55,172 nt of DNA from Gemmatimonadota bacterium (GCA_003697105.1 RFFQ01000170.1:1-55172); one strand, 5' to 3'; positions 19,111 to 44,773 are shown, numbered from the stretch's first letter. Numbers and translations are program-made. The notes: generated from the sequence alone by a model not told the origin.

Positions 19111-19140
19111 CATGGAACATCTCGCCGGTAAGGGAGGATG

Positions 19141-19176
19141 GCGACATCGAGTTAAACATCTCGATGTCGCTTTTTT
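19141..19176 (+). terminator. intrinsic terminator
   Basis: GCGACATCGAG ttaaacat CTCGATGTCGC TTTTTT. Confidence 0.85.
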
Positions 19177-19221
19177 CGCAAAAATCACCCTTACGACCTC
19201 AACACAGAAATAGGTAGCACT

Positions 19222-20922
19222 ATGGCTCTTCTTATTTATACCGATGAACACGGAAAGGAACACCAAGTCCCTATCGAACGTTCAAAACTGTTGATAGGAC
19301 GCAGCAAAGATAATGATTTAGCGTTGCTTGATATTTACGTTTCACGCTATCATGCAAAAATTACCGTGGAGAGTGATCGATATTACATAGAGGATTGCGG
19401 AAGTACCTATGGCACGTATGTCAACGGTACACAGGAAAAACGGGTATTGTTGGAATATGGAGATGAAATTAAAGTCGGTGAAACCGTACTCCATTTTGTT
19501 AGCGATGAGGTGGAACAGACAAATGAACAATTGGCACAATTGGTCAATAAGCAAAACGCCGGTCAGGCAATGAAGGCATTTAACCAAATCGAACACGAAT
19601 TTGATGATATTCGGGATCAACTCCAAGCCGTTCGTGACTCAAAAGCAGTAGATGTGACCACACTTTTGGAACGCGTCGATCATCTCGGTCAAACGATTGC
19701 CGAAATTCATACTAATTTGGCGGAACTGGAAAAGGCAAGTCAAATCAACGCCACCTTGTACGAAGTGGGCAAAATGATCAATACCGTCTTCGAGTTGAAC
19801 CGCTTGCTCAATCTGGTAATGGATTTAGCTCTGAAAGTGATGAATGCGGAACGAGGGTTTATCATGTTGATCGATCAAGAGACCGGCGAACTGCGAACGG
19901 AAGTTGCCCGCAACATGGATCCCGAAGATGATCAAAGCCTGCTCCAATCCGAATCTTCTGGAACATCCATCAGTCAGGGTATAGCAACCCAAGTGATCGA
20001 AACCGGTGAGCCGATTCTAACAACAGATGCCTCCAATGACCCGCGTTTTATGCGTCAGGCAAGTGTCATTATGTATAACATCCACTCCGTGATCTGTGTC
20101 CCGTTGCGCTCTAAAGAGCAAGAGATCATTGGTGTGATTTACGTGGATAATCGTATTTCCAAAGGCTATTTCACCCAAGATGATTTGGATTTTCTGATGG
20201 CGTTTACCAATCAAGCCGCGTTAGCGATTGAAAATGCCCAGTTGTACAACAGTATTCAGGAACAAGAGCGCATCCGGGAGAATTTACAGCGCTATCTACC
20301 GGCAGAATTGGCAAATCAAATGATGAATCAGGGACAGATTCAATTGGGCGGAGAAGAATGTTTTGTTTCGATTTTGTTCTCGGATATTCAAGGTTTTACC
20401 TCCCGAGCCGAAAAAATGCCGGCAGGGGAAGTGGTGCAAATGCTAAACGCTTATTTTAGTCTCATGACCGACGAAATTTTTAAGCAGGAGGGCACTCTCG
20501 ATAAATTTATGGGGGATGGTATTATGACCATCTTCGGGGCACCCATCCCGCATGAAGATCATGCGCTACGGGCAATTAAAGCCGCTATTGGGATGCGAGA
20601 ACGCCTTAAAGAATTGAACGCGGAGTGGGCTAAAGAAGGCAAAGAACCGCTGGTAATCCGAATTGGAATTGCCAGTGGAACGGTGGTTGCTGGTAACATC
20701 GGTTCGGAACGCCGCATGGATTATACCGCCATTGGAGATGCCGTCAATTTGGCATCCCGATTGGAAAGCGCGGCTTCTGGAGGACAAATTTTGATTGATG
20801 ATATGACCTATGAACTCGCCGCCGGAGTCATTAAAGCCAACCGCTTAGTCCCCATCCGTGTCAAAGGCAAAAGTCGTCCTATTCAGGTATATGAAGTTGT
20901 GGGTCTGGAAACCGATGTGTAA
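19222..20922 (+). CDS. FHA-coiled coil-GAF-class III adenylate cyclase
   Basis: FHA (IGR..VSRYHA), GAF (ICVPL..IGVIYVDN..FT.DDL), cyclase FSDIQGFT, DKFMGD, YTAIGDAVNLASRLE. Confidence 0.93.
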   Translation: MALLIYTDEHGKEHQVPIERSKLLIGRSKDNDLALLDIYVSRYHAKITVESDRYYIEDCGSTYGTYVNGTQEKRVLLEYGDEIKVGETVLHFVSDEVEQTNEQLAQLVNKQNAGQAMKAFNQIEHEFDDIRDQLQAVRDSKAVDVTTLLERVDHLGQTIAEIHTNLAELEKASQINATLYEVGKMINTVFELNRLLNLVMDLALKVMNAERGFIMLIDQETGELRTEVARNMDPEDDQSLLQSESSGTSISQGIATQVIETGEPILTTDASNDPRFMRQASVIMYNIHSVICVPLRSKEQEIIGVIYVDNRISKGYFTQDDLDFLMAFTNQAALAIENAQLYNSIQEQERIRENLQRYLPAELANQMMNQGQIQLGGEECFVSILFSDIQGFTSRAEKMPAGEVVQMLNAYFSLMTDEIFKQEGTLDKFMGDGIMTIFGAPIPHEDHALRAIKAAIGMRERLKELNAEWAKEGKEPLVIRIGIASGTVVAGNIGSERRMDYTAIGDAVNLASRLESAASGGQILIDDMTYELAAGVIKANRLVPIRVKGKSRPIQVYEVVGLETDV

Positions 20923-25929: not shown

Positions 25930-27054
25930 CTATTGGTCTAAGATGCGTTGGTAGTAAGCTTCATAACGTGGGATAATCACCTGCGGAGAGAATGATCGCA
26001 AGGCATGTTCGCGCCCTTTACGTCCCATTTCACGCCGGAGGTCGTGATCTTTCAGCAACCGGATCGCATAATCAGCCATCGTATCCACGTCACCGACTTC
26101 CGCCAAATAACCGGTCTCCCCGGATAGTACCACTTCTCGCAGACCACCCGCATTGGAACCGATTACCGGCACACCCGAACTCATGGCTTCCAACGCGGAA
26201 AGCCCAAAACTTTCGTGTTCGCTGGGGAAAAGCATCAGATCACTGAGGGCTAACAAATCGGGTATGCCATCTTGCTTCCCCAAATAGCGAATTTTATCAC
26301 AAATCTTGAGTTGCCGGCAATAGGTTTCCGAAGAAACCCGTTCTGGACCATCACCGACCATCAGCAAAATGGCATCAACTTCTTGTTGGACCCGGTAAAA
26401 AATATCCACCACATCTTTGATCCGCTTGACCGGACGGAAATTGGAGATATGAATCAGCACTTTTTTACCCCGAGAAAGCTGGCAACGACGCATATTACGG
26501 GAGAGAACTCCAGAGAACAAATCTGTATCAATAAAATTCGGAATCACCTCAATGGGTCGCTGGATTTGCAAAGTGCGGATCGTCTCCTGACGCATCCACT
26601 CCGAAACGGTCGTGACCCCATCACTTTTTTCAATAGAAAATTGGGTGATCGGCAAAAAAGAGGCGTCTGTACCCACAATGGTAATGTCCGTACCGTGTAA
26701 GGTAGTGATAACTTTAACCTTATCCGCCCCGACAATTTGTTGTGCCAGATACCCACTGGTCGCATGAGGGATGGCATAATGAACATGTAGCAAATCGAGG
26801 TTTTCGTGGCGGATAATATCGCTCATTTTGGCGGCTAACGAGATCGCATACGGTTGGTACTCAAACAGAGGATATTTCATGACCTCCACTTCGTGAAAAA
26901 AGATATTTTCATGAAAGTAATGATGAAGGCGAGCCGGCATAGCATAGCTAATAAAATGCACCGCATGACCTCGATTGGCGAGTTCCTTGCCCAACTCCGT
27001 CGCAATGATGCCGCTACCGCCATAGGTCGGGTAACAAGTGATACCGATTTTCAT
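25930..27054 (-). CDS. bshA: N-acetyl-alpha-D-glucosaminyl L-malate synthase
   Basis: [53 protein letters not shown]. Confidence 0.96.
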
Positions 27055-27077
27055 GCAAGTTCCTTTTGACAAATAGG

Positions 27078-27809
27078 TTATAATGACAAAATAGCCATGA
27101 CATTCTGGGTTGAAACCGGTTCGGACATCCAAAACGGTTCACCATAGCGCACTTGAATTTTGGAGCCCCAATAACTTGCCCGTCCGGTAATGCCTTCCCA
27201 AAACGTTTTACTGCTGATGTACGTCTCCGGCTCACCGGTGGAAGCATTGGCTTGATAAAATTGGCTCTGGTATGCTTGAATGGCGACAAGTTTGTACTCA
27301 AACACATCCGAGACATCCACAATAATCGTGGGTTGCACTGGGATGTAATGGGTAAAATAATAGAGAATCTTAAGCGGTCGATACGGTGTTTGACCGGTAT
27401 CAATTGCCCGCAATCCACTATAAAAAGCGGCTTCTTTTACCAAGTAGCTCGCATGGACGTGATCGGGATGGCGGTCTTCTGGATAGGGGATCAAAATCAA
27501 GTGAGGTTGAAATTCGCGTAACGTCTGAATCACTCGTAACCGGTGTTCGGGAGTCTGCGCAATACCCCCATCTGGGATTTCCAGATTAACACGAACATCC
27601 AACCCCAGAAGCGTACTTGCCGCTTGTGCTTCTTCCGCACGGATTTCGGGTGTCCCGCGCGTGCCCATCTCACCGCGGGTAAGGTCGCAGATACCGGTAC
27701 GATACCCGTGTTGTTTGGATTTGAGCAAAGTTCCACCGCAAAAAAGCTCCCCATCATCTGGATGTGGAGCAAACACGAGGATATCCAATTTCGTGCTTGA
27801 ATCCGGCAT
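27078..27809 (-). CDS. bshB1: bacillithiol biosynthesis deacetylase
   Basis: PHPDDGEL, DLTRGEMGTRG, DRHPDH. Confidence 0.93.
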   Translation of the reverse strand: MPDSSTKLDILVFAPHPDDGELFCGGTLLKSKQHGYRTGICDLTRGEMGTRGTPEIRAEEAQAASTLLGLDVRVNLEIPDGGIAQTPEHRLRVIQTLREFQPHLILIPYPEDRHPDHVHASYLVKEAAFYSGLRAIDTGQTPYRPLKILYYFTHYIPVQPTIIVDVSDVFEYKLVAIQAYQSQFYQANASTGEPETYISSKTFWEGITGRASYWGSKIQVRYGEPFWMSEPVSTQNVMAILSL

Positions 27810-27817
27810 AATGACCT

Positions 27818-29425
27818 CTATAATTCAATAAGTCGGTGCGCTACCGGTCGATCATCGATTGCGCCATAAATGGTTTTTATCAGATCAAAGCCATAGCGAA
27901 TCAGGTAATACACAATGTTAAACACACGTTCTTGCAAATTCCCATTCGGGTAGAGGTGAGCTTGTATTTTGGCGAGCTGTCCGGTGATCACCTTCTGGTT
28001 TTTTTGTTGAGCCGCAATGGAACGCTCTTCCAACTTATCAATTTGATATTTAATCTTTTGTAAAGCGTTCTCGGTGGCAGACGCCAAATTGGGGTCAATT
28101 GACCCCACCAATTGTGCCAACGAGCGCAACTCGGCACTCATATTCGCATGAACCTGCGCAAACACCGGCGCTAAATCGATATCCACATCACCGATAACCC
28201 GCCGGAACAGACTTTTACTATCCAGAAACACATCGGTCAGTGAGAGATGATATTTGGCTAAGGATTTACGAATTTTGCCTTCTATAATCGTAAAGGACGC
28301 CCGTGGATAGATCAACGGCATCGCCTGTTCATACAAGTGATACGCCGCTTTGAGTTGGGCAAAATAGGCAATTTCCCCCGGACCTGCCACGTATGCCACC
28401 GTCGGGAACAGTATATCTTGCAGAATGGGGCGCAACACTACATCCGTCGTAAATTTTAACGGATGTGCTTCTATTTCCTGACATAATTCCGTTTCACTAA
28501 AAGCGTGAAGTCCCGCCTGAAACTGATCCCCTTCAATCCGGATACGCTGACGTATTCCATCAACAGTATAAAACAGATGAAGTTGAGAATCTCGTAGCTG
28601 AATCTGTTGGTGGTAGCCGGCATCTTTTAGAGCGTTGGTTTGAGATTGAAGGGCAGAATCCAAAGCGGAGGCGTCACTCACGGCTTTTTGGAATACCGGT
28701 ATATATAGATTCGCACAGGCTTCATCCAATGGATTGAACAACACCAAGCCATAGGTTGCCATTAACTGCGCCAAAAATCGCCCAAAAGCCCCGGAAAACG
28801 TGTATTCTGGGCGGTAGGTATCGTTCAAAAGCGCCAATACGGCAGGTAAAAAATCAGTTACGGGATTATCATCTACAAACGAGTCAATAATCTTGCGAAT
28901 TTCATCGCCCAATCTCCGTTGGCTCACAATTTGTGCCGAATTATCGGGTTGGGGGAGGCTCAGCCGGCGTAACTCGTTTTGCAGAGTGGCATAATCGATG
29001 TGATTCACTTCCGCAAAGTCATGATCAAAGGCTTCCAACCAAAAAACGGGCACACAAGGGACATCATACATCTCCTGCCATTGCGCCGCCAACTTGCAGG
29101 CAGTTAATGCTTTATAGATTGTGTACAAGGGACCGCCGAAAAGCCCAAGTTGTTGTCCGGTAACGATGGTACGAGCACCGTTTTTCAAATGTTGGATGTG
29201 CGTGAACGTCAATTCACTACTTCCAAATTCTCGATTTTGACGTTCCAGAACCGTAATCAACTGGGGGGAACACACCGGCAGGAACGACTCCTCCTGCAAG
29301 AAAAGGTGATCCACATCTGAAAAGCGATATTCAAAAAACGGGGTAATAGATTCGGTTTGATTCAAATAATCCTGATACAGTGAGCTGGTACCGGGCAATT
29401 CGGAGGCATTCACGGTGTGAGACAT
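27818..29425 (-). CDS. bshC: bacillithiol cysteine-adding enzyme
   Basis: VTGQQLGLFGGPLYTIYKA, VPVFW..DHDFAE, GPGEIAYFAQL, LQER. Confidence 0.95.
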   Translation of the reverse strand: MSHTVNASELPGTSSLYQDYLNQTESITPFFEYRFSDVDHLFLQEESFLPVCSPQLITVLERQNREFGSSELTFTHIQHLKNGARTIVTGQQLGLFGGPLYTIYKALTACKLAAQWQEMYDVPCVPVFWLEAFDHDFAEVNHIDYATLQNELRRLSLPQPDNSAQIVSQRRLGDEIRKIIDSFVDDNPVTDFLPAVLALLNDTYRPEYTFSGAFGRFLAQLMATYGLVLFNPLDEACANLYIPVFQKAVSDASALDSALQSQTNALKDAGYHQQIQLRDSQLHLFYTVDGIRQRIRIEGDQFQAGLHAFSETELCQEIEAHPLKFTTDVVLRPILQDILFPTVAYVAGPGEIAYFAQLKAAYHLYEQAMPLIYPRASFTIIEGKIRKSLAKYHLSLTDVFLDSKSLFRRVIGDVDIDLAPVFAQVHANMSAELRSLAQLVGSIDPNLASATENALQKIKYQIDKLEERSIAAQQKNQKVITGQLAKIQAHLYPNGNLQERVFNIVYYLIRYGFDLIKTIYGAIDDRPVAHRLIEL

Positions 29426-31780: not shown

Positions 31781-31818
31781 AAAAAGACCTGCTGAAGTGG
31801 TGCCAGCAGGTCTTTTTT
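31781..31818. terminator. bidirectional terminator
   Basis: AAAAAGACCTGCTG...CAGCAGGTCTTTTTT. Confidence 0.88.
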
Positions 31819-32944
31819 ATACCGTAAAGGTTTGAATAGCCTCAATCACGCGTGCTTGATCGGAGGGAGTCAAATCGTTGTAAAACGGAAGGCGAACAAG
31901 CCGGTCACTCACCGACTCGGTGACCGGACACATCCCCGGCTGGCCGCCCAATTGGCGTCCCATTTTAGAGAGATGGAGCGGCAAATAGTGAAAAACAGTT
32001 TGCACACCCCGGTCTCGCAGAAATGAGATAAACCGGTCCCGGCTTTCCAGCGTAGGCAATAGTAAGTAAAAGAGATGTGCGGAATGATGACAATGTGCGG
32101 GTACCACCGGCAATTGGACATCTTGTGCCGCTGCCCAATCCGAAAGTCCGGTGTAATACGTTGACCAGATTTCGTGCCGTCGCTTTTGAATCTGGTCTTT
32201 ATGTTCAAACTGAGCAAATAAAAATGCGGCTAATAGGTCGGAAGGTAAAAAGCTTGAACCAACATCCACCCACGTATATTTATCGACTTGACCTCGAAAA
32301 AACCGGCTACGGTCTGTGCCTTTCTCCCGGATAATTTCAGCGCGTTCAATAAACCTTTCCGCATTGATGAGCAACGCGCCCCCTTCGCCACAATGAAAAT
32401 TTTTGGTCTCATGGAAGCTTTGTGTCGCCAGAGCGCCAAACGTACCCAAATATTGACCATAGTAGGTTGCAAATAACCCGTGGGCATTATCCTCAATAAC
32501 TAAAATGTTGTGGTGGTTTGCGATGGACACAATCGCATTCATTTCGCACGCGACCCCCCCATAATGGACGGGTACAACGGCTCGGGTTCGCGGGGTTATT
32601 TTGGACTCCAATAGGGTTTCATCCAAATTGAGTGTGTCCGGACGGACATCAATAAACACCGGGGTTGCTCCTCGCACTAAAAACGCATTGACCGTCGAGA
32701 CAAACGTAAATGCCGGCACAATCACCTCGTCCCCGGGCTGAAGATTGAGCAACAGTGCGGACATTTCCAACGCATCGGTACAAGATGTTGTCAGCAATAC
32801 TTTTTTCACACCCAACGTATCTTGTAAAAACGCATGACATTTTTGAGTGAACACGCCGTCACCCGAAATTTTGCCGCGTTCTACTGCTTCCGTCATATAC
32901 TGCATTTCTTTCCCCGTCATGTGGGGTCGATTAAACCGGATCAT
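31817..32944 (-). CDS. rffA: dTDP-4-amino-4,6-dideoxyhexose transaminase (RffA/WecE)
   Basis: TTSCTDALE, SFHETKN..GEGG, EKGTDRSRFFRGQVDKYTWVD. Confidence 0.9.
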   Translation of the reverse strand: MIRFNRPHMTGKEMQYMTEAVERGKISGDGVFTQKCHAFLQDTLGVKKVLLTTSCTDALEMSALLLNLQPGDEVIVPAFTFVSTVNAFLVRGATPVFIDVRPDTLNLDETLLESKITPRTRAVVPVHYGGVACEMNAIVSIANHHNILVIEDNAHGLFATYYGQYLGTFGALATQSFHETKNFHCGEGGALLINAERFIERAEIIREKGTDRSRFFRGQVDKYTWVDVGSSFLPSDLLAAFLFAQFEHKDQIQKRRHEIWSTYYTGLSDWAAAQDVQLPVVPAHCHHSAHLFYLLLPTLESRDRFISFLRDRGVQTVFHYLPLHLSKMGRQLGGQPGMCPVTESVSDRLVRLPFYNDLTPSDQARVIEAIQTFTV

Positions 32945-33917
32945 GGACTGTTTCTATCCTCGCTTGAATAGACCGTAATGACAAACCTTCCTGAATGAAA
33001 AAGATGCCCCCCAGTGCCGAAACTACCCAAACCACCACCCGGTTTAAAAGCGCAACAGCCAGCCCCTGAGGTAACGCTACACCAAACATCGCAAGTGAGA
33101 CCGTGATAGTACCTTCCCGAATCCCCAAAGAACCCAACGTTACCGGTAACATCGAAACCAACGTCGTCAAAGACAAAACAACCACTAAATCCAAGAGATG
33201 AATATCTGCGCCAAAAGCACGTATAAAAAAATAAAATCGGAGTAACCGGGCAATATTGAATAAAACGGCAACGAAAAATGCGGAACTAAGCCGGGTGAAT
33301 GGAATACCAGCGATAATGTGCCGGAAAGAATCGTATTTCTCCCAGCCTAACCGGAGAAACCGGTCAAACCATGACTTTTTGAAAAGGAAAAAGTAACCCC
33401 CGATGAGGATGCCCAAACCTGCGCATACCAATAACCAGACGGGGTGAATGTTAACCTGCAAACTAAGTTGGTGCTGACGTGCGAGGTCAACAATCCGGTT
33501 GAAATCCATTAATACGATCAAACAACCCGCAGTGACCAATATCCCGAGTCCCATCAAGCGATCAAAAGAGATCAGAACAATGGGTTTCATCCATTCATCA
33601 TATTTTTGCCGGAGTGCAAATACCCGGTAGGCATCCCCACCGACATTGCTAAACAAAAAGTTGCTAAAAAATAGCCCAACAAAATAGAGCCTAAATACAA
33701 AACGGAATGATAACTCATATATTCTCAATAGGATATAAAGTCTTAGAATATCAAAGAACGTGGCACATATAAAAAAGACAAGCCCGATAAAAAAGGGTTG
33801 AAACCTTAAATTTCGGAAACTTTCAACGAGATTGCTGAAATTTACATGATAAATTAACCCGCCAAATAACCCCAGAACCAAGACGAGTTTAAGAATAAAA
33901 AAAACGTTTTTTTTCAT
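32931..33917 (-). CDS. lysylphosphatidylglycerol-synthase TM-domain / flippase-like protein (UPF0104)
   Basis: Multiple TMs, VGGDAYR, DRLMGL, LP.TLGSLGIRE. Confidence 0.82.
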   Translation of the reverse strand: MKKNVFFILKLVLVLGLFGGLIYHVNFSNLVESFRNLRFQPFFIGLVFFICATFFDILRLYILLRIYELSFRFVFRLYFVGLFFSNFLFSNVGGDAYRVFALRQKYDEWMKPIVLISFDRLMGLGILVTAGCLIVLMDFNRIVDLARQHQLSLQVNIHPVWLLVCAGLGILIGGYFFLFKKSWFDRFLRLGWEKYDSFRHIIAGIPFTRLSSAFFVAVLFNIARLLRFYFFIRAFGADIHLLDLVVVLSLTTLVSMLPVTLGSLGIREGTITVSLAMFGVALPQGLAVALLNRVVVWVVSALGGIFFIQEGLSLRSIQARIETVHDPV

Positions 33918-34755
33918 GTGGGCATTCGTTTTTTCGGGCAACAAATAGACAGCTCGTCCCGGTTGGGATCGTCTTTCCCTGTTTAATTTTAGCAAGTTCC
34001 GGGCGTAGCAACCGGCGAATCAGTTTAGAATCTACACCGCCAGACGTACCATGTTCGGATGTACTCGATAATAACCGGTTATTCCGGAAGAGTCTCAACC
34101 GGAAGGGGAGTGTCCGTAGCAGAAAAATCGGAACAATTAACGGCTGAAAAAAATAGGTAAAAAACACCATTTCGAATCGATCCAGTAAGCATTTTTGTAA
34201 CGTTTTGAAGGTGTAACGCCGGAAATGACCCGCCCGAACATCACTAAATGACCAGAGCCACGAGTACGCGGGTACCGTGCCATAAATAAGCCCGTGATCC
34301 GTTAAAATGGTGTGAATCAATTGAATAAAGCGGTCGTCATCTGGAATATGTTCCAGCACATCAAAAAATCCGACCGCACTCACCGATTTCGCCGGGAAAT
34401 GGGCATCTTCTAGTGTACTACAAATCACATTTGGGATTTGGCGATACGTTTTAGCATTGAACGCACCCGTAGCCCCCGGTTCGAGTAAGATAGCCTCCAC
34501 CCCATCGTCCAAGAGGCGGCGTGTAACAAACCCGTTCCCCCCACCGACATCCAACAAGATACCAGTTGGCGGGAATCGACGTACAATCGTTGAGATGCAC
34601 TCATTACGGTGTTGGAACCAAAACGAATCATCTTCAATTTGAAAACAATTCAGATTACCATCTTCAGGATATGAGATGGCAGACGTACTCCTCTCACTTC
34701 GCCAAATTCCGAGATCATCTTGATATAAATTTGGATTTAATTGATTTACATTCAT
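33889..34755 (-). CDS. class I SAM-dependent methyltransferase
   Basis: SFWFQHRN, LDVGGGNG, DVLEHI, TVPA..WLWS..D..AGHFRRY. Confidence 0.88.
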   Translation of the reverse strand: MNVNQLNPNLYQDDLGIWRSERSTSAISYPEDGNLNCFQIEDDSFWFQHRNECISTIVRRFPPTGILLDVGGGNGFVTRRLLDDGVEAILLEPGATGAFNAKTYRQIPNVICSTLEDAHFPAKSVSAVGFFDVLEHIPDDDRFIQLIHTILTDHGLIYGTVPAYSWLWSFSDVRAGHFRRYTFKTLQKCLLDRFEMVFFTYFFQPLIVPIFLLRTLPFRLRLFRNNRLLSSTSEHGTSGGVDSKLIRRLLRPELAKIKQGKTIPTGTSCLFVARKNECPHEKKRFFYS

Positions 34756-34788: not shown

Positions 34789-35685
34789 TTAAGCAAGCGG
34801 TACAGGACGCCCATCCCCTAAAATGACAGGCGAGTTCTGAAAAAGTTCATCTACATAGCGGTCATCGGAATGGAACATCTCCGCAACTCGCTGGTAATCC
34901 CTTTCGGAGTATTTATCTTCAGTGGGTGGTTTTGGCGCTGTTGAAGTTTGGGTAGAACCCAAATAATCAAACCAATTTCGGACAACGCGAAGAACCGGTG
35001 CCGGCATAGTTTTGATTAGGGCATCCACAACACCCCGTTTTTGCAACAGGCGGTCAAACCACTCAATCCGGCGACGACCCCGCGCATTTATTTTTTTATT
35101 GGTGTAATTTCCTTCTTCAAAATAAGGGGGAACACCGATAAACCGTTCAAGCGCTTGCAACAAGGCTAAGGAATGCGTGCCTAAAATGGAAAAATCGTAT
35201 AAAAACAAGTTTGAGCCAAATTCATCCCGAAAGCGGGAGATGGTATTGCGAATTTTACCATCATCAAAATTAAAAATGACCTGTTTTCCTTCGCGTTCTA
35301 CCGTGCACCCATTTAAAAATTCTTGGAACGGCGGCACCACAAAATTTCCGTCGTATTGTTCGTATAAGGAAAAAATCCATTCAGTCGGTTTTCGGATCCC
35401 CAGAATAATTTTGGAATCTGGGTTAAAGTCTAAGATGCGGTCAATCGCTCGTGGGTCCATGAAATAATTTCCACAAATATCAATTGCCATTTGGTTATCC
35501 CGCATGTCAGTGAAAAAATTTAGATACCATTCCAACCCATTATCAAAATTATAAGCAAAATACGCCAGCTCCTTACGCTGAGGTACGTAGATATGCGGGT
35601 GCTTTTGAAGATTATGATATAAAAAGGTCGTCCCAGATCGGGACATCCCAGCATGAATTACAATCCGATTTCGATCTACCATCAT
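34789..35685 (-). CDS. sulfotransferase family protein
   Basis: 5'-PSB loop GMSRSGTTFL, KELAYF, IRKP..WIFS. Confidence 0.85.
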   Translation of the reverse strand: MMVDRNRIVIHAGMSRSGTTFLYHNLQKHPHIYVPQRKELAYFAYNFDNGLEWYLNFFTDMRDNQMAIDICGNYFMDPRAIDRILDFNPDSKIILGIRKPTEWIFSLYEQYDGNFVVPPFQEFLNGCTVEREGKQVIFNFDDGKIRNTISRFRDEFGSNLFLYDFSILGTHSLALLQALERFIGVPPYFEEGNYTNKKINARGRRRIEWFDRLLQKRGVVDALIKTMPAPVLRVVRNWFDYLGSTQTSTAPKPPTEDKYSERDYQRVAEMFHSDDRYVDELFQNSPVILGDGRPVPLA

Positions 35686-35706: not shown

Positions 35707-36840
35707 TTATAAAACAGATTTCAGCGTATAAAAGACATCTTCAAATAAAAAATAAGCCGTATGGTGGGGTAATAACTCAGATTCATTACAGAGGAGTTGG
35801 ATTCGAGTTTGTTCCTGAGCAACATGCACCGGGTCTGTGCTATAATTTAGCGAAAAATGGGCACGTTGAATGGACACCGGTTCCGTAAACGAACGGGGGT
35901 CATAACTGGTTTTGATGTCAGGGTACATTAACGGATATTCCAGAGCCAGCATCTCGGGGAAACAGGTATATTCGGTATATTGGATGAGGTCCGGCGGCAA
36001 TAGGGCTTGATATTTCCCCACGGATTGAGGCGTTACTCCCGCTACCGGTTGAAATGAGGAGTTCCCCATCCACGGTTCACCATTTTGATCCAAAATGCCC
36101 GCCTGAAATAGATCAGAAGGAAAGCTTGCGATCTCCAGCCAATTCGCCAGTCGGTTGAGCATCTCCACCGGCTTCGCTACGATATCCTCATACCGCACCC
36201 AGACAAAGTTTGGGTGGTGTTGCAGGTGCAACGCATACGCCACACTTTTACGCCAATTTCGGAGATTAAATAAGGTGGGGCGTGCGCTCCCAATATAGGT
36301 CTTTCCGTTTCCATAACCCATCGAGGTCAGTACATCGCGCGGATCACGAATTACAATCAAACATTTAAAGCCCTGATCGAGGAGAAACGGTAAAAATTCC
36401 TCACAAAGGACCTCTTTTGAGCCTACATATTCTACAGATTTTCCCTTTTGGCGAAAGAAATATAAAAACGCCTTAAAAATGTGGAGCCACACCCCCTTAG
36501 TAAGATGATCGATAAAATCAGAGAGACGATCCAACCTTGTGTTTTGCCCAGTGTACCCTTCCATCGCGATAAATAGACGTTCTACTTGATGCGGCGTCAA
36601 CGTATAATCCTGTAAAAAGCGATGGAATTGATCCAGAGTATATCGAGTTTCTAAGAAGCCATGCGTCAGCGCATAATATTCATCTTCACCACATTCTTGG
36701 CGGAGAAAATCACGTTTGGCTTGAATAAATAAATACGGGAAGGGTTGCGATAACACCGATAGTTGAGGATGGTTACAGAGTAATTTATCCAGCAAGGTTG
36801 TCCCCGACCGTAACATCCCCGTGAGGAAAAGATACTTCAT
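35707..36840 (-). CDS. sulfotransferase family protein
   Basis: GMLRSGTTLL, IRDPRDVLTS, VRYEDIV. Confidence 0.88.
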   Translation of the reverse strand: MKYLFLTGMLRSGTTLLDKLLCNHPQLSVLSQPFPYLFIQAKRDFLRQECGEDEYYALTHGFLETRYTLDQFHRFLQDYTLTPHQVERLFIAMEGYTGQNTRLDRLSDFIDHLTKGVWLHIFKAFLYFFRQKGKSVEYVGSKEVLCEEFLPFLLDQGFKCLIVIRDPRDVLTSMGYGNGKTYIGSARPTLFNLRNWRKSVAYALHLQHHPNFVWVRYEDIVAKPVEMLNRLANWLEIASFPSDLFQAGILDQNGEPWMGNSSFQPVAGVTPQSVGKYQALLPPDLIQYTEYTCFPEMLALEYPLMYPDIKTSYDPRSFTEPVSIQRAHFSLNYSTDPVHVAQEQTRIQLLCNESELLPHHTAYFLFEDVFYTLKSVL

Positions 36841-37784
36841 GCCTCCAATCCTTGCTGCTGGCGGATCACATAGGTGGGTTTATGTTCTACACCGGATATA
36901 ATACGGAGAAGGTATTCGCCAATCACACCAATCGCAAACAGCAATAGCCCTCCGATAAATAAAATGGTTACCATCAGCGAAGACCAGCCCGCAATGGCGA
37001 CCCCCCAAACCACCTTTTTAATCAGGATATAAAGCGCCAGCAAAAAGCTAAATAGAGAAATTGTAATACCGATATAGCCAATTGATTTTAATAAAAAGGC
37101 AGAATTATTGATAATCAAATTACTAAATACACGGACCAACTTACCAAAGGTATATCCGGTTTTACCTTCTTTCCGTTTCCCATGTTCTGCCGGCACGCCC
37201 ACAATATCCTTGCTGACATAAAACATCAATGCCGGAATAAATGGATTGGGGGTATGAATGGTGAGCATAGCGTCAATGACGGATCGCCGGATTAACCGGA
37301 ATGAGGACAGTTGAATATGCTTGGGTTTGCCAATTAAAATATGGTCAAACCAACCTTTTAATTTGCTGGTGATACGCTTAAAAGCACTATGGTACTTTTT
37401 GCGAAATTCAATAATGACAATATCATGATGTTGCTGGGCAATCAGTTTGGGAATATCTTCGGGGTAATGTTGTAAATCATCATCCATGGTAATGATATAA
37501 TCGCCGCGGGCACGTGCCATTCCGCAAAGTGTCGCCGCTTGCTGACCAAAATTCCGCATTAACTGAATAATTCGGATGTGCGAATTGGATTGAGCCAATT
37601 GGGTTAATACCCGCCAGGTCTCTGGACTGGGCGAAGCATCATCAATAAATATTAATTCATAATCCGCCGCTGGTAGTTGTTCAAAAACGGCATGGACCCG
37701 ATCCGAAAGTTCGACCAAACTCTGCGCAGTGTTGTAAACCGGAACCACTATCGAATAAAGGGTAGAGGGGGCAGATGCGTTCAT
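36837..37784 (-). CDS. GT2 polyprenyl-phosphate glycosyltransferase (ArnC/GtrB-like)
   Basis: SIVVPVYN, RNFGQQAA, MDDDLQH, two C-terminal TMs, GEYLLRI. Confidence 0.9.
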   Translation of the reverse strand: MNASAPSTLYSIVVPVYNTAQSLVELSDRVHAVFEQLPAADYELIFIDDASPSPETWRVLTQLAQSNSHIRIIQLMRNFGQQAATLCGMARARGDYIITMDDDLQHYPEDIPKLIAQQHHDIVIIEFRKKYHSAFKRITSKLKGWFDHILIGKPKHIQLSSFRLIRRSVIDAMLTIHTPNPFIPALMFYVSKDIVGVPAEHGKRKEGKTGYTFGKLVRVFSNLIINNSAFLLKSIGYIGITISLFSFLLALYILIKKVVWGVAIAGWSSLMVTILFIGGLLLFAIGVIGEYLLRIISGVEHKPTYVIRQQQGLEA

Positions 37785-38488: not shown

Positions 38489-40687
38489 TCATCTCAAATC
38501 AAATTGCAAAAAGCCGGCATTCTGAATCATCTCTTCCGTGACTTCAAACGTAACGGTGTCCTGTTCGGTGGTGACCGTGTACGGACCCGCCGTTGTAATA
38601 TCAGACATATTCACTGACAAATCAACCGTCGCATAGGGAACAACCGTTTGAACGATGCCGGTACTATCAGCAACCAGATGTTGTTGATATTCATAATGAC
38701 TACCGGTATTTGTCGTTAAGGGAGCAGTTAGTTTTAAGGATGCCTCCGGTAGCGTGTGGAATACCAGTTTGGCACCCGGCACCCGCTCATAAACTAAATA
38801 AGCCACATAAGAACCGGTGACTACCTCATTTGTCATCAAGTATGAACTTTCAAACACAAGCCGAAAATGCGATAAACCTTGCAATTGGTCTTTATCCAAA
38901 AGATACTGATGCCCTTTCATTTCCCCTAACGCGGTACCCATTGTTCGATAAAAGCGATCATAAAGCTCAAATTGAACATACCCTTCTTCGCTTTCATCAC
39001 TATCAAAATAATCCTGCTGCAGACGACCTTCTTTTTCCAAAGACTCAAAAACCCGGTAGGAATAAAAGAAGGAACCGGGTACCATCACATACCGAACATT
39101 TAAATCTTGGCATAACTGGTATGCTTCAGATTCATCTTCGGAAAGCAAAAAGGTATGGTATGCTCGATTACCGGCACTTTCCATCCGCATGTTGCTACCG
39201 GTAGTCGGTCGGTGCGCATGAAAAATAATGGAAAACCCATCGTTATAATGGGTCAAAATACCATATTCCGGGACATGCTCGGAAGTATAATAGCAACAGG
39301 TTGGGGGAGTATGCTCTTTTAGCCACGCTCCAACTTCATTAATGGCTTCGTAATGTGCGGGTTTAAAGATAATTTTGATGGAATAATAGCCCATAGCCAG
39401 AATCGATACAAACCCAATCAGGAAAAAAATCGCTACCCGAGACCGTATCCGGTCGGTACTATCTAGTTCCTGATATATATCCCAGAGTTTCACCATCACA
39501 AACGCCAGCAATAGAGCTAAAACCAGCGAAAACCCCTCGGCAAACCGGAACCCTTGGATGGCTAACGCACCAAATAAGATGCTCCAGATACAGAACAATA
39601 ACACGAGTTTTCGGTTATTCAGTTGGTAAAAAAGAAAACCCAATATAAACGGTAAAGAAACAACACTATATGAAAAATGCTGGAAAAACTCATCGGCACT
39701 CAGGTTTTCAAATTCTAAAATGGAAGTACCCGCCACAAAGTTAGCCCCCCCCATCACGGACTCAAGCACCTGACTCATAAATAGAATGACAACACCGATC
39801 AACATCACGTTAATGATAATCAGATTAGCGGGACGAACCTGTAGATATAAGCGATAGAGGAATAACGCCAGAAAGGTATAAAAAAACAGCAAAAAATGAA
39901 GACCCGAAAGCTGGTTAAAAATAAAGCGATCCAAATGGACAGACGTATCCAAAAGATAATAGGGTAAGATACTTACGCATGTGATAAAAAATCCCAGAGC
40001 CATAAACGACGTGAACGCTTTATGCTCCTTAAAAAAGAAAAAATACAGATAGATAAAAATCAAAAAAATGGTGAGAAAAACAACAATAAAGGTAAAGTTT
40101 AGTAAGGCAAGCGTAAGTGATATACCGAAAACAACCGCCCACCGGATGGCTTTCCACTCACTTTGAATCCCTTTTACCATTGACAAAACAAGACTCATAT
40201 AAAAGATGGCTTCAATACAGTGATGATCGGGGCGTCCAAATAACACGTATGCCAAATGGGGGGAAAAGAACATGAATAAAACTGCCGCCCAAAATCCGGT
40301 GCGGCGGTCCGCAATCGTTTTTCCGAGGTAATATAGTAACCAAATGGAAAAAATATTCATTAATGGAGGTACAACCGCTGCCGCCCATTCAAACTTTTCA
40401 CCAACGGGGTCTCCTAAGGTCAACAGAAAGGTGAGGCCGGCAAGTAAATAACTAAAAAGATGTTGCCGCATCGGCAACCCTTCGGGATAGTTATTATAGA
40501 AATCCAACGGCGCAATATACCCTTGATGCAGGATCATCTGGGCATGCCTCATATGATAATACCCATCAAATCCATAAAAGGTTAAAACGCCATTTTGGAC
40601 AAGGATTACATAATAGAGAGCGGGTAAGAAGAAAGCAAGAAGAGCTAAAAGAAGGTAAACAACTGGTTCCGTCCGATCATTAGCCAT
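38489..40687 (-). CDS. STT3/AglB-like GT-C oligosaccharyltransferase with an atypical sequon-binding motif
   Basis: GFDGYYHMR, GRPDHH, SILE, many TMs, YGILTHYNDG at the YG..SWWDYG position, C-terminal beta domain. Confidence 0.8.
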   Translation of the reverse strand: MANDRTEPVVYLLLALLAFFLPALYYVILVQNGVLTFYGFDGYYHMRHAQMILHQGYIAPLDFYNNYPEGLPMRQHLFSYLLAGLTFLLTLGDPVGEKFEWAAAVVPPLMNIFSIWLLYYLGKTIADRRTGFWAAVLFMFFSPHLAYVLFGRPDHHCIEAIFYMSLVLSMVKGIQSEWKAIRWAVVFGISLTLALLNFTFIVVFLTIFLIFIYLYFFFFKEHKAFTSFMALGFFITCVSILPYYLLDTSVHLDRFIFNQLSGLHFLLFFYTFLALFLYRLYLQVRPANLIIINVMLIGVVILFMSQVLESVMGGANFVAGTSILEFENLSADEFFQHFSYSVVSLPFILGFLFYQLNNRKLVLLFCIWSILFGALAIQGFRFAEGFSLVLALLLAFVMVKLWDIYQELDSTDRIRSRVAIFFLIGFVSILAMGYYSIKIIFKPAHYEAINEVGAWLKEHTPPTCCYYTSEHVPEYGILTHYNDGFSIIFHAHRPTTGSNMRMESAGNRAYHTFLLSEDESEAYQLCQDLNVRYVMVPGSFFYSYRVFESLEKEGRLQQDYFDSDESEEGYVQFELYDRFYRTMGTALGEMKGHQYLLDKDQLQGLSHFRLVFESSYLMTNEVVTGSYVAYLVYERVPGAKLVFHTLPEASLKLTAPLTTNTGSHYEYQQHLVADSTGIVQTVVPYATVDLSVNMSDITTAGPYTVTTEQDTVTFEVTEEMIQNAGFLQFDLR

Positions 40688-40710: not shown

Positions 40711-41169
40711 TTAATCATTGGTGTATTGATAATCCAACGCATGGCAAGGAAACTTATCATACTCCGCATCCGGCGGATCATAGGGCCACGGGTCTCCGTT
40801 ATCGGGCCGGACCCCAGGACCTAAAGGCGACCAGACAATAATATTCCCCGTAGAGACATCCCCCCAAATTCCATATTGCTGCCCCGGTTTACCACCAGCA
40901 ACTTCAGGTATCTTGGTAAAATGATGTGCGTTGATCAGGTTTGTCCAACCGTCCGTACTACCATCCACATTTTGCTGGGTAAACTGCATGTACAATTCAA
41001 TCTGGAGAACGATTTCGCGCATGTCCTTTTTAGCTCGGGCACACAATGCTTTCTGCTGAACCGTACCAAATGAACGGATCGCAATGGTAGCAAGCACGCC
41101 GAGAATAACTAAGACAATAATGAGTTCGACGATAGTAAAACCGACAGATCGTTTCATCATGAGCATCAC
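40711..41169 (-). CDS. type IV pilin / pseudopilin (minor); exact start uncertain
   Basis: G|FTIVELIIVLVILGVLATIAI prepilin motif. Confidence 0.88.
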   Translation of the reverse strand: MMLMMKRSVGFTIVELIIVLVILGVLATIAIRSFGTVQQKALCARAKKDMREIVLQIELYMQFTQQNVDGSTDGWTNLINAHHFTKIPEVAGGKPGQQYGIWGDVSTGNIIVWSPLGPGVRPDNGDPWPYDPPDAEYDKFPCHALDYQYTND

Positions 41170-41180
41170 GATTAAATAGG

Positions 41181-41220
41181 AACAAGAAAGGGTAGGTTTG
41201 TTTAGAACCTACCCTTGCTT
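41181..41220 (-). terminator. terminator/attenuating hairpin after the major pilin
   Basis: AAGGGTAGGTT...AACCTACCCTT. Confidence 0.7.
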
Positions 41221-41253: not shown

Positions 41254-41652
41254 TTATTGCAACACACAGCACTTACCAACACCATTGTTTGCGGCAGCAA
41301 CGTTGATCTTACCATTAGCAATACTTGTAGAGATCACATAAGCAGTGGCATTGCTGTCATTGTTGAACGGATTCGCCGGGATCGACTTCAGATACGGGCC
41401 ATCATAGCCAGACGGACCCGTTGCGGCTACTAAATTCGCCACACTCGAAACATCGGCGCTGGTATCGGTCATGTACTTGTTAGCCGCGTCCAAAATCTGC
41501 TTCAGGTTAGCAATACAAGCTTTGCACTTCGCTTTATTCTGAACTTTCAGGAAGTTCGGAATCGCGATAGCGGCAAGGATACCGATGATGACCACAACAA
41601 TCATCAACTCGATGAGCGTGAAACCGCTCTTGCTATTACGAAAGTTCTTCAT
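41254..41652 (-). CDS. pilA: major type IVa pilin
   Basis: MKNFRNSKSG|FTLIELMIVVVIIGILAAIAIPNF; AAGGAGG SD; own promoter and terminator. Confidence 0.9.
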   Translation of the reverse strand: MKNFRNSKSGFTLIELMIVVVIIGILAAIAIPNFLKVQNKAKCKACIANLKQILDAANKYMTDTSADVSSVANLVAATGPSGYDGPYLKSIPANPFNNDSNATAYVISTSIANGKINVAAANNGVGKCCVLQ

Positions 41653-41746
41653 GAGACATCCTCCTTGAAGATTGAAGAAAAGTGAATTGAGAAAGAATTT
41701 ACACATCGGTGTTTTTTTATTTCCACCATCTGGGCAAGGAGAAACC

Positions 41747-41893: not shown

Positions 41894-44773
41894 TTATTGG
41901 TGTTTCGCTCGTTGTTTTGCCTTCAATAATCGTGACGTATAGCTTTCGGTCTCATCCGGCGGTTCATGCTCCGTCACATCACGTTGTGGAGGAGCGGGGG
42001 CTTCGATATCCGGTATATCGGGCATAAACACCGTACCGGTGGTTTCGGTGGAATGTGAGGAAAGGTCAGGTTCTTCAGAAGTGGATATAGCGGGCGTCTT
42101 GTGATGCTTTAATTCTTGTTTGCGGTGGATCAATTGTGACATCCCGGCACTCCGAGAAGGACGGTTTTCCGGACGCGGTTTGGGGGTCAGATAACTCCTC
42201 ATCCCAGCTAATTTCGCCACAAGTGGGTCAAATTGGTGCCACTCGATCATCAACCGGCGGATGAGAACATCCAGAAAAAAAAGCACAATCGCAATTTGAA
42301 CTAGGTACTCCCAAATATCTACCGGTAACGTAACGGTCTCTAAATTGTGTTGGTACACCTCTTCAGGAGACCGGATCAGTGTCCCTCCGGTCTGTTGGGC
42401 GGCATGTTGCAACAAATTGGGGTCACTCTCAAAAGATTGAAATTCAGAGGAATACGGAATTTTTAAGCCGGCAGTCTCAAATCCGGTTTGGTCTTTAGCG
42501 AAAATATGAACTAGGTAAATTCCGGGTTCATTAATGGCAAACTCACTTTCATACCGTCCCGGGGCGGTTTGGCGGATGCGTAGCGGTTTATTTTCCAGTT
42601 TTGGATTGACCAACACACCTTCTAATTCCAAAAAATTACGGAAATTACCGGCGGCATCTATGGCATCGATAACCACGTGCCCCTTTTGTTGGATGGCTTC
42701 TAACCGCACATCAAAGGGCTGAGTGGAAACCTTGCGCATCGTCCAGCGGAGAACTTGCTGCCAAAAGGGCTGAAAATATGCCCAATTCAGCCAATTGACC
42801 GCCCAACGTGTGTCTGCATCGGAAGTAAATGCCACCGACCGACCCAAACCAAATTGCCATGCTGCCAGCAGTGGAGCATCATGGTGGGTAACCCAGATCG
42901 TCTCTGCGGTGGACTTGGGGGAGGTCCCTACATAGCCTAACAGTGGGGGTACTAGCGGGGGAATTCCCTTCAACATTGGGTGCGGTTGCACCTGCCGCGG
43001 GACAAATTCTTCCTCAATCAGGTACGAACGCGATGCCAAGAGGGTCTCTTTCGTGAATATCTGGGGAACACGACGCGCATTTTTACTGGCATAATACCGC
43101 CCGCCCCCGCGTTGGGCTAGTTGTTGCATTAATAGGTCATCCGCATCCCCACCAATCGCCACTGTAGAGATGGTAATATTGGCGCCGGTTGCCTTCTGCA
43201 CCAATGAATCAAAATTTCCCGGGGCAGTGCGTCCATCGGATAAAATAATAATATGCTTAAGTTGGGTTTCGAGCGTTTTCAAGGCGTTAATAGCTTCTGC
43301 CAATGCCGGTTCTAGGTTTGTCCCGCCTCCCGGACGCAGAGTCGCCACCTCGGATATAATTCGTTTACGCTCATTTGTCGCCCGCATCTTCACGATCCAT
43401 TTTGCCGCGCCATCGAAGCCGATAACACCTACCCGGTCGGTATCAGAAAGTAAAGAGATAGAGGCAATAGTAGCTTCCTTGGCAATTTCAATCTTTTCCA
43501 CACCGCCACTCAAATCTGCCATACTACCCGATTTATCGATCACGAACACAATCCCCAGCGAAGGAAAATAGGTTTTGCTCTTCAAATCCATATTGACCGG
43601 TAAGGCACGCTCAACAGGTGTTTGATAGTAACCTCCCACGCCAAAGCTATTTTCTCCCCCGACCATGATAAAGCCCCCGCCAAAATCCCGCACGTAGCTT
43701 TCCACCGCCCGCATTTGGTCATCCGAAAACTGAAGGGCAGAAACATTGTTGATCAGAATGGCGTCGTAATTTTGTAACGCGATCAACGAGCCCGGCAGTT
43801 GTCCCGCCGAACCCACATCAATATCCAGCGAAGTGGTGAGCGGCAAGAGTGCCTGCTGAAGTGGCTCCGAAGGGTTAATCAGTAAGACCTTGGAACGCCC
43901 CACAACCCGCGTGAACGAACCCGCCCGGTTATTTTCGACAATCTGATCCGAATCCGTTTCTAAACGCACATCATAGGTAAATAGACCCGTCTCATCGAGA
44001 ACTTCCCGAAAACGATAGACTTCTTTCCCGGGATCGAGTTTTACCATTACCGGTTCACGAACCGGGCTGCCATTCCGGTAAAGCCAAAGAGTACCTTTCG
44101 CCTTGCCGGAACTCCGTAAAATCGTTGCCACCTCAAAGGGTTCGCCGGGGTTGATCGTTTGCGGAGTAATGACATCTTCCACTAGAACCTCTTGAGTAAC
44201 TTCCATCTGGAGCGGAATCACACTGATTTCGATACCATTTGTGCCCGCTAACGAGGCTTCCTGCAACAAGTCACCCTCCGTTTGATTCCCATCACTGATG
44301 ATCACAATCCGTTTTTGGGCGTCTGGTGGGAAAAGCCCCATCCCTAAACGCACGGCTTCCGCCAGATTGCTAGCCGTCCGTATTGGAGTCGATGTAAACG
44401 TACCTAATACAGGGGTCGCTACAGGAGTTTGTTCGACCAGTGCATTCTTCCCGAATAAAATAATACCCAAGATGTCATCCGCCGGTTTTTCTGCCGCCAC
44501 CAACTGGATAAAACTCTGTGCAAACGGTTCGCTTTGGTGGCGAATACTATCCGACACATCAACCAAAAAGATCACCGCTAATTTCTGGCTGGATTTGACC
44601 CACTGTATCCCTGCCAAACTGAAGATCAATAACAAAAAGAGAGTCACCCGCAAGATCAAGGAAATGACCCGTCGAAAAAAAGGTATATCAGATAAACTGT
44701 GACGATACCATTTAAATATCCAGTAAAGCAACGGTAACAGCAGCAAAAATAAGGGCTTAGAAAAGGTGATCAT
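41894..44773 (-). CDS. membrane VWA-domain protein (BatA-like N-terminus, two VWA domains, GATase-like domain)
   Basis: DVSDS and DKSGSM MIDAS motifs, ISDG/LSDG, GGGFIMVGG..SFG.GGY, WQFGLGRSVAFTSD. Confidence 0.88.
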   Translation of the reverse strand: MITFSKPLFLLLLPLLYWIFKWYRHSLSDIPFFRRVISLILRVTLFLLLIFSLAGIQWVKSSQKLAVIFLVDVSDSIRHQSEPFAQSFIQLVAAEKPADDILGIILFGKNALVEQTPVATPVLGTFTSTPIRTASNLAEAVRLGMGLFPPDAQKRIVIISDGNQTEGDLLQEASLAGTNGIEISVIPLQMEVTQEVLVEDVITPQTINPGEPFEVATILRSSGKAKGTLWLYRNGSPVREPVMVKLDPGKEVYRFREVLDETGLFTYDVRLETDSDQIVENNRAGSFTRVVGRSKVLLINPSEPLQQALLPLTTSLDIDVGSAGQLPGSLIALQNYDAILINNVSALQFSDDQMRAVESYVRDFGGGFIMVGGENSFGVGGYYQTPVERALPVNMDLKSKTYFPSLGIVFVIDKSGSMADLSGGVEKIEIAKEATIASISLLSDTDRVGVIGFDGAAKWIVKMRATNERKRIISEVATLRPGGGTNLEPALAEAINALKTLETQLKHIIILSDGRTAPGNFDSLVQKATGANITISTVAIGGDADDLLMQQLAQRGGGRYYASKNARRVPQIFTKETLLASRSYLIEEEFVPRQVQPHPMLKGIPPLVPPLLGYVGTSPKSTAETIWVTHHDAPLLAAWQFGLGRSVAFTSDADTRWAVNWLNWAYFQPFWQQVLRWTMRKVSTQPFDVRLEAIQQKGHVVIDAIDAAGNFRNFLELEGVLVNPKLENKPLRIRQTAPGRYESEFAINEPGIYLVHIFAKDQTGFETAGLKIPYSSEFQSFESDPNLLQHAAQQTGGTLIRSPEEVYQHNLETVTLPVDIWEYLVQIAIVLFFLDVLIRRLMIEWHQFDPLVAKLAGMRSYLTPKPRPENRPSRSAGMSQLIHRKQELKHHKTPAISTSEEPDLSSHSTETTGTVFMPDIPDIEAPAPPQRDVTEHEPPDETESYTSRLLKAKQRAKHQ

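Follow-up and report, generated by a model that had tools for sequence, protein, structure and literature searches.

A bacterial AglB-L-like oligosaccharyltransferase homologue encoded beside type IV pilin genes belongs to a widespread group in which the sequon-reading motif varies freely

Results

The window encodes an AglB-L-like protein with HYNDG in the place of WWDYG

We analysed a 55,172-nucleotide stretch of DNA from a Gemmatimonadota bacterium (GCA_003697105.1 RFFQ01000170.1:1-55172; hereafter the window), the minus strand of which carries a gene for a homologue of the oligosaccharyltransferase (OST) protein STT3 that we refer to as P0001. A preliminary description made from the sequence had noted that P0001 carries HYNDG where OSTs carry a near-invariant WWDYG, had aligned the two by eye, and had proposed an active transferase with remodelled acceptor recognition. 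Translation of the minus strand bore out the position of the motif, which lies within an open reading frame (ORF) that has no internal stop:

38489..40687, minus strand: AglB-L-like STT3 homologue P0001, 732 amino acids (aa), with a multi-pass membrane N-terminal domain, a C-terminal core domain and an AglB_L1 peripheral domain
39236..39250, minus strand: HYNDG, aa 480-484 of P0001, at the WWDYG position (translation, phmmer and profile mapping)

P0001 is the only STT3 match in the genome of the window (96.85% complete) and matches three domains above their Pfam cut-offs, namely STT3, AglB_core-like and AglB_L1. A Pfam search at E 0.01 found no match in it to Wzy_C, the family of the pilin O-oligosaccharyltransferases PglL and TfpO. 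Its sole NCBIfam match is to TIGR04154 (234.2 bits, E 3.2e-69; below the cut-off of 450), which describes archaeosortase-associated OSTs of the Methanomicrobia/Halobacteriota type. P0001 shares with these proteins the DxYYHMR, DHH and EYG-L/M patterns, but the clade formed by the 21 archaeal proteins that we sampled excludes it.

The HYNDG motif is covered by contigs from three runs in two studies (one run possibly being the source sample), and because these contigs show no differing letter within the motif we ruled out an assembly error as its origin. A word-index search in which 7997 candidates were scored found no close orthologue, only three other proteins at 22–27% identity; the profile library described below held no relative above about 33% identity, viral contigs held none at all, and the two further genomes from this phylum yielded a weak match of 273 aa but nothing full-length. 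No RNA dataset is listed as containing the locus. GC content is slightly lower over the locus (0.41–0.48 versus 0.45–0.50 around it), a dip too slight to make a case for recent transfer.

HYNDG aligns with WWDYG and the catalytic residues are retained

Residue equivalences were read from the columns of a profile of 147 sequences (profile A1) aligned with AglB-L of Archaeoglobus fulgidus (AfAglB-L; E 3e-128). Residues were then counted among the 151 nearest cluster representatives (22–33% identity to P0001), which comprise 148 further top matches from a profile library (1444 clusters at E 0.001) and 3 proteins from the word-index search. According to the A1 profile, H480/Y481/N482/D483/G484 map on W550/W551/D552/Y553/G554 of AfAglB, the Gly alone being kept. 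With phmmer, YGILTHYNDG aligned without gaps on YAVLSWWDYG of AfAglB-S2 (PDB 3VU0), at a weak single-sequence E of 0.29, and an AlphaFold2 model of P0001 (mean predicted local distance difference test score 92.4) places a strand (476–478), a loop and a helix (484–491) around the motif. Together these results rule out a misaligned motif, and the register that had been drawn by eye stands. The three motifs that had been described as retained, GFDGYYHMR (aa 39–47), GRPDHH (aa 151–156) and SILE, likewise align with catalytic residues of AfAglB (all assignments by profile mapping; counts are out of the 151 representatives):

40565..40567, minus strand: D41, equivalent to AfAglB D47, metal ligand of the first DXD motif; D in 148
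40220..40228, minus strand: D154-H155-H156, equivalent to AfAglB D161-H162-H163, second DXD motif; first residue D in 149, E in the other 2
39713..39724, minus strand: SILE, aa 322-325, equivalent to the TIXE/SVSE motif of EL5, with E325 equivalent to AfAglB E360; E in 147
39545..39547, minus strand: R381, equivalent to AfAglB R426, near the lipid phosphate; R in 149
39185..39199, minus strand: GSNMR, aa 497-501, replacing AfAglB ANPFQ, with R501 on Q571, near the peptide site
39053..39055, minus strand: R545, on AfAglB K618 of the DK motif, register uncertain

Since HYNDG sits at WWDYG and the catalytic acids align, rather than falling elsewhere or failing to align as the preliminary description had allowed for, an inactive relic is unlikely. 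Two acids are credited with amide activation, and the Glu of TIXE also binds the metal via water (accessible text of PMC8342417); P0001 keeps both amide-activating acids. The pocket that holds the sequon Ser/Thr is described as consisting of WWD and a residue of the DK/MI motif (accessible sections of PMC8342417 and PMC3703281), and as plastic (PMC3703281). The DK-motif region carries insertions and requires structures for its alignment (PMC3703281); the A1 profile, which has to bridge an insertion here, pairs S539 with E613 and R545 with K618 in uncertain register. In PglB it is the Tyr of WWDYG that binds the donor sugar at its N-acetyl group (according to the accessible part of PMC6215017). 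Because the equivalent of Y553 contacts the donor there, HYNDG alters a donor contact as well as the acceptor reader; the change at this residue points to the donor and not to the sequon, so that the motif as a whole is not purely an acceptor matter, as it had been taken to be, and donor recognition by P0001 may differ as well.

The predicted fold matches archaeal AglB-L over its full length

OST architecture, a multi-pass membrane N-terminal domain followed by a C-terminal globular core, was found in P0001 by Pfam, in the model, and by Foldseek and VIA-align. The top Foldseek match of the model was AfAglB-L (7E9S, E 6.7e-30, template modelling (TM) score 0.82), and VIA-align aligned AglB-L over its full length (702 residues, 3.1 Å, Z 33.6). 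Although Z was similar for AglB-L and eukaryotic STT3 (30–35), only AglB-L gave a full-length alignment. The likeness to AfAglB-L (3WAJ, 3WAK, 5GMY, 7E9S) takes in the whole fold, including the L1 peripheral domain (TM 0.77–0.84), and the equivalents of D47, D161-H162-H163, E360, R426 and G554. P0001 differs in having HYNDG for WWDYG, GSNMR for ANPFQ and no clearly present DK motif, in being about 135 residues shorter and only 17–20% identical, and in its bacterial host. AfAglB-L has been solved with dolichol monophosphate (PMC8342417, accessible text).

The PglBs of Campylobacter and Desulfovibrio are, like P0001, bacterial single-subunit STT3 homologues, but the C. lari enzyme fits the model less well (VIA-align Z about 25, root-mean-square deviation 5.2–5.3). 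PglBs carry WWDYG or, in the characterised Desulfovibrio enzymes, WWDWG, together with DGGK/DGGR, where P0001 has HYNDG and GSNMR, and the sequon rules of the Desulfovibrio PglBs are relaxed at the –2 position (both as given in the accessible text of PMC12229607). Other enzymes of the GT-C fold, the C-mannosyltransferase DPY19, the PMT O-mannosyltransferases and ArnT, are much less similar to P0001 (Z 24.6, 21.9 and 19.0, respectively; 10–12% identity), and none of them was matched by the A1 profile in the PDB at E 0.001. These three use lipid-monophosphate sugar donors and acceptors other than a sequon Asn, and provide a precedent for re-use of the GT-C fold. By fold and catalytic centre, then, P0001 is AglB-like, but it lacks WWDYG and is not a canonical OST.

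Catalytic residues are fixed and the WWD motif is absent across bacterial relatives

WWDYG occurred in only 13 and WWD in 18 of the 151 representatives, so that its reputation as near-invariant holds for characterised OSTs and fails for the relatives of P0001. Among the 133 representatives without WWD, D41 was kept in 130, D154 in 132, E325 in 129 and R381 in 132, whereas the commonest residue at position 480 occurred in at most 21 and D at position 482 in 42. Relatives often have Pro, Ser, Ala or Phe at position 480 and Gly, Ser or Pro at position 482. Free variation at these two positions beside fixed catalytic columns indicates that catalysis is under strong selection and the pocket under little. 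We rejected the idea that HYNDG is a unique innovation because W, W, D and Y were all lost in 15 of the 151; His came first in 7, and Asp occupied the Tyr position in 26.

A pattern scan of species genomes returned 65 loci, of which the record titles assign 46 to bacteria and 19 to archaea. The motif region could be compared for 43 proteins from bacteria and 21 from archaea, once three weak second matches had been dropped and three loci that end before the motif set aside. WWD was present in none of the 43 bacterial proteins versus 15 of the 21 archaeal ones, the first Trp in none versus 16, and the second Trp in 41 versus 21; the equivalent of Gln571 was G in 31 of the bacterial and Q in 20 of the archaeal proteins. 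Because the scan patterns derive from the D41 and DHH motifs, the conservation of those two is partly circular, but that of E325, whose equivalent occurred in all 43 bacterial proteins, is not. When A1 was searched without patterns against 400 other genomes, 27 had a match at E 1e-20; nearly all of these carried the label of the same domain, and they came from many families. In the 29 proteins taken from 25 of these genomes (one weak and one fragmented match were left out) there was no WWD and no first Trp, while the second Trp was present in 28, both catalytic Asp in all 29, and the TIXE Glu in 28, with Asp in the remaining one. The two genome sets overlap partly, and related proteins are not statistically independent, so that a Fisher test on the scan counts overstates the contrast. 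The pattern extends across proteins that are about 25% mutually identical and come from many phyla. Absence of WWD, which the preliminary description had presented as special to P0001, is therefore the rule among its bacterial relatives, and the look at homologues that it had suggested reveals clade-wide variation of the motif. P0001 diverges beyond most of them, its second Trp position being Tyr.

In a quick tree of 80 rows, made with the motif columns removed and rooted on one distant row, the 21 archaeal proteins formed one clade (Shimodaira-Hasegawa-like approximate likelihood ratio support 100). The bacterial proteins were far more diverse, with an unresolved base, and P0001 was an unplaced long branch (1.33). 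Bacterial homologues within a euryarchaeal AglB clade can be seen in a published tree (PMC4973528), and a Geobacter OST is mentioned once in PMC4894442, in the accessible portions of these papers. We found no description of the WWD-less bacterial clade in the literature searched, which left most subscription journals and supplements outside its reach. Judging from these comparisons, P0001 belongs to a wide, apparently uncharacterised bacterial AglB-L-like group, of which HYNDG would be one divergent form.

The six archaeal proteins without the full WWD are mostly from Methanotrichaceae; loci L031, L033, L046, L037, L045 and L023 (Methanotrichaceae, ANME-2) carry SWSYG, NWGYG, KWDYG or WWSYG amid WWDYG relatives. 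By sequence, secondary loss of the motif is thus also found in archaea, within the WWD-bearing clade. Two short clade members (L120:5571-7091 and L121:3928-5520; open frames of 507–531 aa) keep the catalytic motifs, carry xWDLG and include one gene divergent from a pilin gene. Four genomes (G159, G313, G081 and G156) hold two paralogues each, all without WWD.

P0001 lies in a same-strand run of pilin and sugar-modification genes

Ten same-strand genes, separated by gaps of at most 84 bases or overlapping, run from pilin 1 through pilin 2, P0001, WbqC, a family 2 glycosyltransferase (GT2), two sulfotransferases, a methyltransferase and a flippase-like protein to WecE:

41254..41706, minus strand: type IV pilin 1 (Pfam N_methyl), 122 aa mature, Asn-rich, candidate major pilin and candidate acceptor
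41188..41216, minus strand: 11-bp terminator-like hairpin between the pilin genes (hairpin scan)
40711..41169, minus strand: type IV pilin-like protein 2, lacking any N-X-S/T sequon and 142 aa long when mature, ending 23 bases before the start of P0001
37781..38479, minus strand: WbqC-like protein (PF08889, E 1.8e-78)
36837..37784, minus strand: ArnC/PgfS-type GT2, which likely attaches one sugar to undecaprenyl phosphate (PF00535; NCBIfam ArnC 173 bits and PgfS 144 bits, both below cut-off)
35707..36840, minus strand: sulfotransferase-family protein (PF13469, E 4.6e-14)
34789..35685, minus strand: second sulfotransferase-family protein (PF13469, E 4.7e-6)
33889..34755, minus strand: class I S-adenosylmethionine methyltransferase (PF13489, E 3.4e-11)
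32931..33995, minus strand: flippase-like membrane protein, which probably starts at the ATG near 33917 (PF03706; TIGR00374 above cut-off)
31817..32944, minus strand: WecE/RffA dTDP-4-amino-4,6-dideoxygalactose transaminase (NF008687 575 bits, cut-off 375; TIGR02379 534 bits, cut-off 435)

Pilin 1 has the highest N_methyl score of 13 in the genome; its two sequons, NDS at position 88 and NAT at position 91 of the mature protein, are not in excess over shuffles (P 0.46). A pilin was found near the gene of a relative at 8 of 46 loci in the pattern scan and in 5 of 25 genomes in the A1 sample, against a rough background, taken from the genome of the window only, of about 1.4% of positions near a pilin-type gene. 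The pilin link thus recurs in unrelated genomes, but only in a minority of relatives, and a pilin-specific pocket, one of the possibilities raised in the preliminary description, is not supported for the family as a whole. In 14 adjacent pilins (two apparently frameshifted ORFs excluded), 5 of which have no sequon, we counted 17 sequons versus 16.2 expected, or 11 versus 12.1 after collapsing related Myxococcota pilins. Nor was there a clear sequon excess among exported-like proteins of the genome as judged from crude gene calls (N-X-T 1.06 and N-X-S 0.93 of expectation). Four Myxococcota pilins (L027, L047, L063 and L068; ORFs at about 5014-5814, minus strand), divergent from the transferase gene, all end in V(D/E)NETE, with an N-E-T sequon.

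The type of the GT2 suggests a sugar carried on undecaprenyl monophosphate, which would match the monophosphate donor of AglB-L. PgfS is part of a streptococcal O-glycosylation system; WbqC we presume, with some uncertainty, to have a role in the cassette. A Pfam scan of 93 of the 320 crudely called neighbour ORFs of relatives found mixed housekeeping genes with scattered PMT_2, GT1, GT2 and GT87, and a conserved neighbourhood across relatives was rejected on account of these mixed neighbours. A GT2 gene directly abuts the transferase gene at L101, L102, L104 and L014, a WecE-like gene follows it at L054, L063 and L068, and in one subclade a PMT_2-family GT-C gene lies directly downstream (L020:4818-6062, L034:8300-10006, L036:2633-4354).

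The gene immediately upstream of the pilin genes, at 41894-44773 and on their strand, encodes a 959-aa membrane protein with VWA and glutamine-amidotransferase-like regions. The hairpin scan found 15 sites in 12 kb versus 13.8 expected, so that the scan alone is no evidence of function for the hairpin, and a promoter scan (18 sites versus 25 expected) was uninformative. Elsewhere in the window, three adjacent genes at 25930-29425 resemble what we take to be the bacillithiol pathway (BshA-, BshB1- and BshC-like), and 15610-20922 presumably holds a gene for a Ser/Thr-kinase-like protein, the linker of which is long, acidic and Pro-rich, and after it an FHA-GAF-adenylate-cyclase-like gene. The last third of the ORF at 12727-13692 is unlike protein, a longer product seemingly carrying on in another frame; this may be a frameshifted gene.

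Discussion

From the fold, the catalytic residues, the replaced motif with its clade-wide extent, and the gene order, we infer the activity, donor, acceptor and linkage of P0001, and tentatively favour, at somewhat less than an even chance, an active metal-dependent AglB-L-type transferase that moves a lipid-phosphate-linked sugar to Asn residues of the pilins encoded beside it, with no check for a +2 Ser/Thr. In this scheme a dTDP-4-amino-6-deoxy sugar made by WecE would be modified by WbqC, the methyltransferase and the sulfotransferases; the ArnC-like GT2 would load it on undecaprenyl monophosphate, and the flippase-like protein would move the loaded lipid outward. P0001 would bind a divalent metal via D41, D154 and H156, the lipid phosphate via R381 and the acceptor backbone via SILE, with D41 and E325 activating the Asn amide. 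With the equivalents of W550, W551, D552 and Q571 replaced, site choice would fall to backbone contacts and proximity to the membrane-anchored pilin, and Asp in the place of Tyr at position 483 would suit a reducing-end sugar that lacks the usual C2 N-acetyl group. This proposal is favoured because the fold matches, over its full length, an enzyme solved with dolichol monophosphate; because catalytic columns are fixed and pocket columns free in the 133 representatives without WWD, both amide-activating acids being kept; because WWD is absent from the bacterial proteins of the pattern scan and from the 29 proteins of the A1 sample, and present in most archaeal ones; and because of the run from pilin to WecE, the recurrence of pilins above background, and the chance-level sequons of adjacent pilins, 5 of which have none.

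Several observations weigh against it. Activity, donor and acceptor are read from sequence, and the present analyses do not tell N- from O-linkage. H-Y-N could still form hydrogen bonds, and R545 may replace K618. Pilin 1 has two canonical sequons, and chance-level sequons are equally expected if pilins are not substrates. No pilin lies in the neighbouring DNA of 38 of 46 and 20 of 25 relatives, some of these contigs being short. The cassette is not repeated among relatives: matches to WbqC, to sulfotransferases and to the flippase were found in 0 of 46 and 0 of 29 relatives' loci, WecE-like genes in 3 of 46, and GT2 genes in 1 of 46 and 5 of 29. Other genes of the genome, six of PMT_2 type, three of Wzy_C and three of Bac_transf, encode products that might use the cassette or glycosylate pilins instead.

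An ordinary N-X-S/T OST with an equivalent pocket, in which the hydrogen bonds otherwise made by Trp-Trp-Asp come from His480, Tyr481 and Asn482, and Arg545 stands in for the DK-motif lysine, is rather unlikely. Each of the three side chains is polar and could act as donor or acceptor, R545 does map on K618 if its uncertain register is right, the pocket is described as plastic (PMC3703281, accessible text), and sequons are to be found in pilin 1 and in the conserved NETE ending of the four related Myxococcota pilins. However, the residues of relatives at positions 480 and 482 cannot all mimic WWD, so that H and N look like drift, and neither the adjacent pilins, 5 of 14 having no sequon, nor the exported-like proteins show an excess. 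Slightly less probable again is an O-linking transferase, whose target in pilins or further exported proteins would be Ser/Thr or a different hydroxyl. Pilin glycans are mostly O-linked in the bacteria studied, the neighbouring GT2 resembles PgfS, the fold is common to PMT and DPY19, and PglB can O-glycosylate a homoserine peptide (accessible part of PMC6215017). The TIXE Glu is kept as in N-linking OSTs, though it also binds metal via water, the genome has three proteins of Wzy_C, the usual O-OST family, on other contigs, and our data hold no direct sign of O-linkage.

The peptide-reading residues are gone, most relatives have no nearby pilin, and the best match of the GT2 is ArnC, with a flippase-like gene present. 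These facts would be explained if P0001, like ArnT or Gtr-type enzymes, modified an envelope lipid or glycan in place of a protein; we consider this doubtful, as the backbone-binding I/V-x-E pattern and the entire C-terminal domain are kept, ArnT is far more distant than AglB-L (Z 19 over 453 aligned residues versus Z 33.6 over 702), and pilin adjacency recurs in unrelated genomes. Very improbable is a decaying or inactive relic, or a protein that acts only as a lipid-glycan hydrolase or scaffold. The long branch of P0001, the distance of all its relatives, and the replacement even of W551, which 41 of 43 bacterial relatives retain, would suit such a fate, and WWDXG is called essential in characterised enzymes (PMC12229607, accessible text). 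Against this stand an intact frame in an operon-like run, the retention of all tested catalytic residues, and the same pattern in highly diverged proteins of many phyla. The proposal of an active transferase with remodelled recognition thus fits the clade, in which catalysis is fixed and the pocket free, while its activity and acceptor are deduced.

The subject of this work is accordingly less a single protein than a widespread bacterial AglB-L-like group with a freely varying sequon-reading motif, for which remodelled acceptor recognition is plausible on sequence grounds; P0001 itself would likely attach sugars to the pilus proteins encoded next to it, following another recognition rule. The locus makes the question testable, for it offers candidate acceptors, two pilins of which one has sequons and one has none, and a candidate donor pathway. 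We give close to even chances to a broader proposal, that bacteria possess, beside Campylobacter-type PglB, a second and much wider protein glycosylation system, in which AglB-L-like enzymes (present in about 7% of the genomes in a family-diverse sample) would use monophosphate-lipid donors to modify proteins such as type IV pilins without an N-X-S/T requirement, whether at non-sequon Asn or by O-linkage. If so, this window would be unusual in its completeness, a single operon supplying acceptor, enzyme and donor pathway, and the Methanomicrobia-type AglBs that carry WWD might be one branch inside this bacterial diversity. If the clade, which spans Myxococcota, Planctomycetota, Binatota, Omnitrophota, Acidobacteriota and others, is active, catalysis and the reading of the +2 residue would be separable in nature; bacterial glycoproteomes would be wider than sequon-based searches reveal, and the group would offer glycoengineering enzymes with new site rules.
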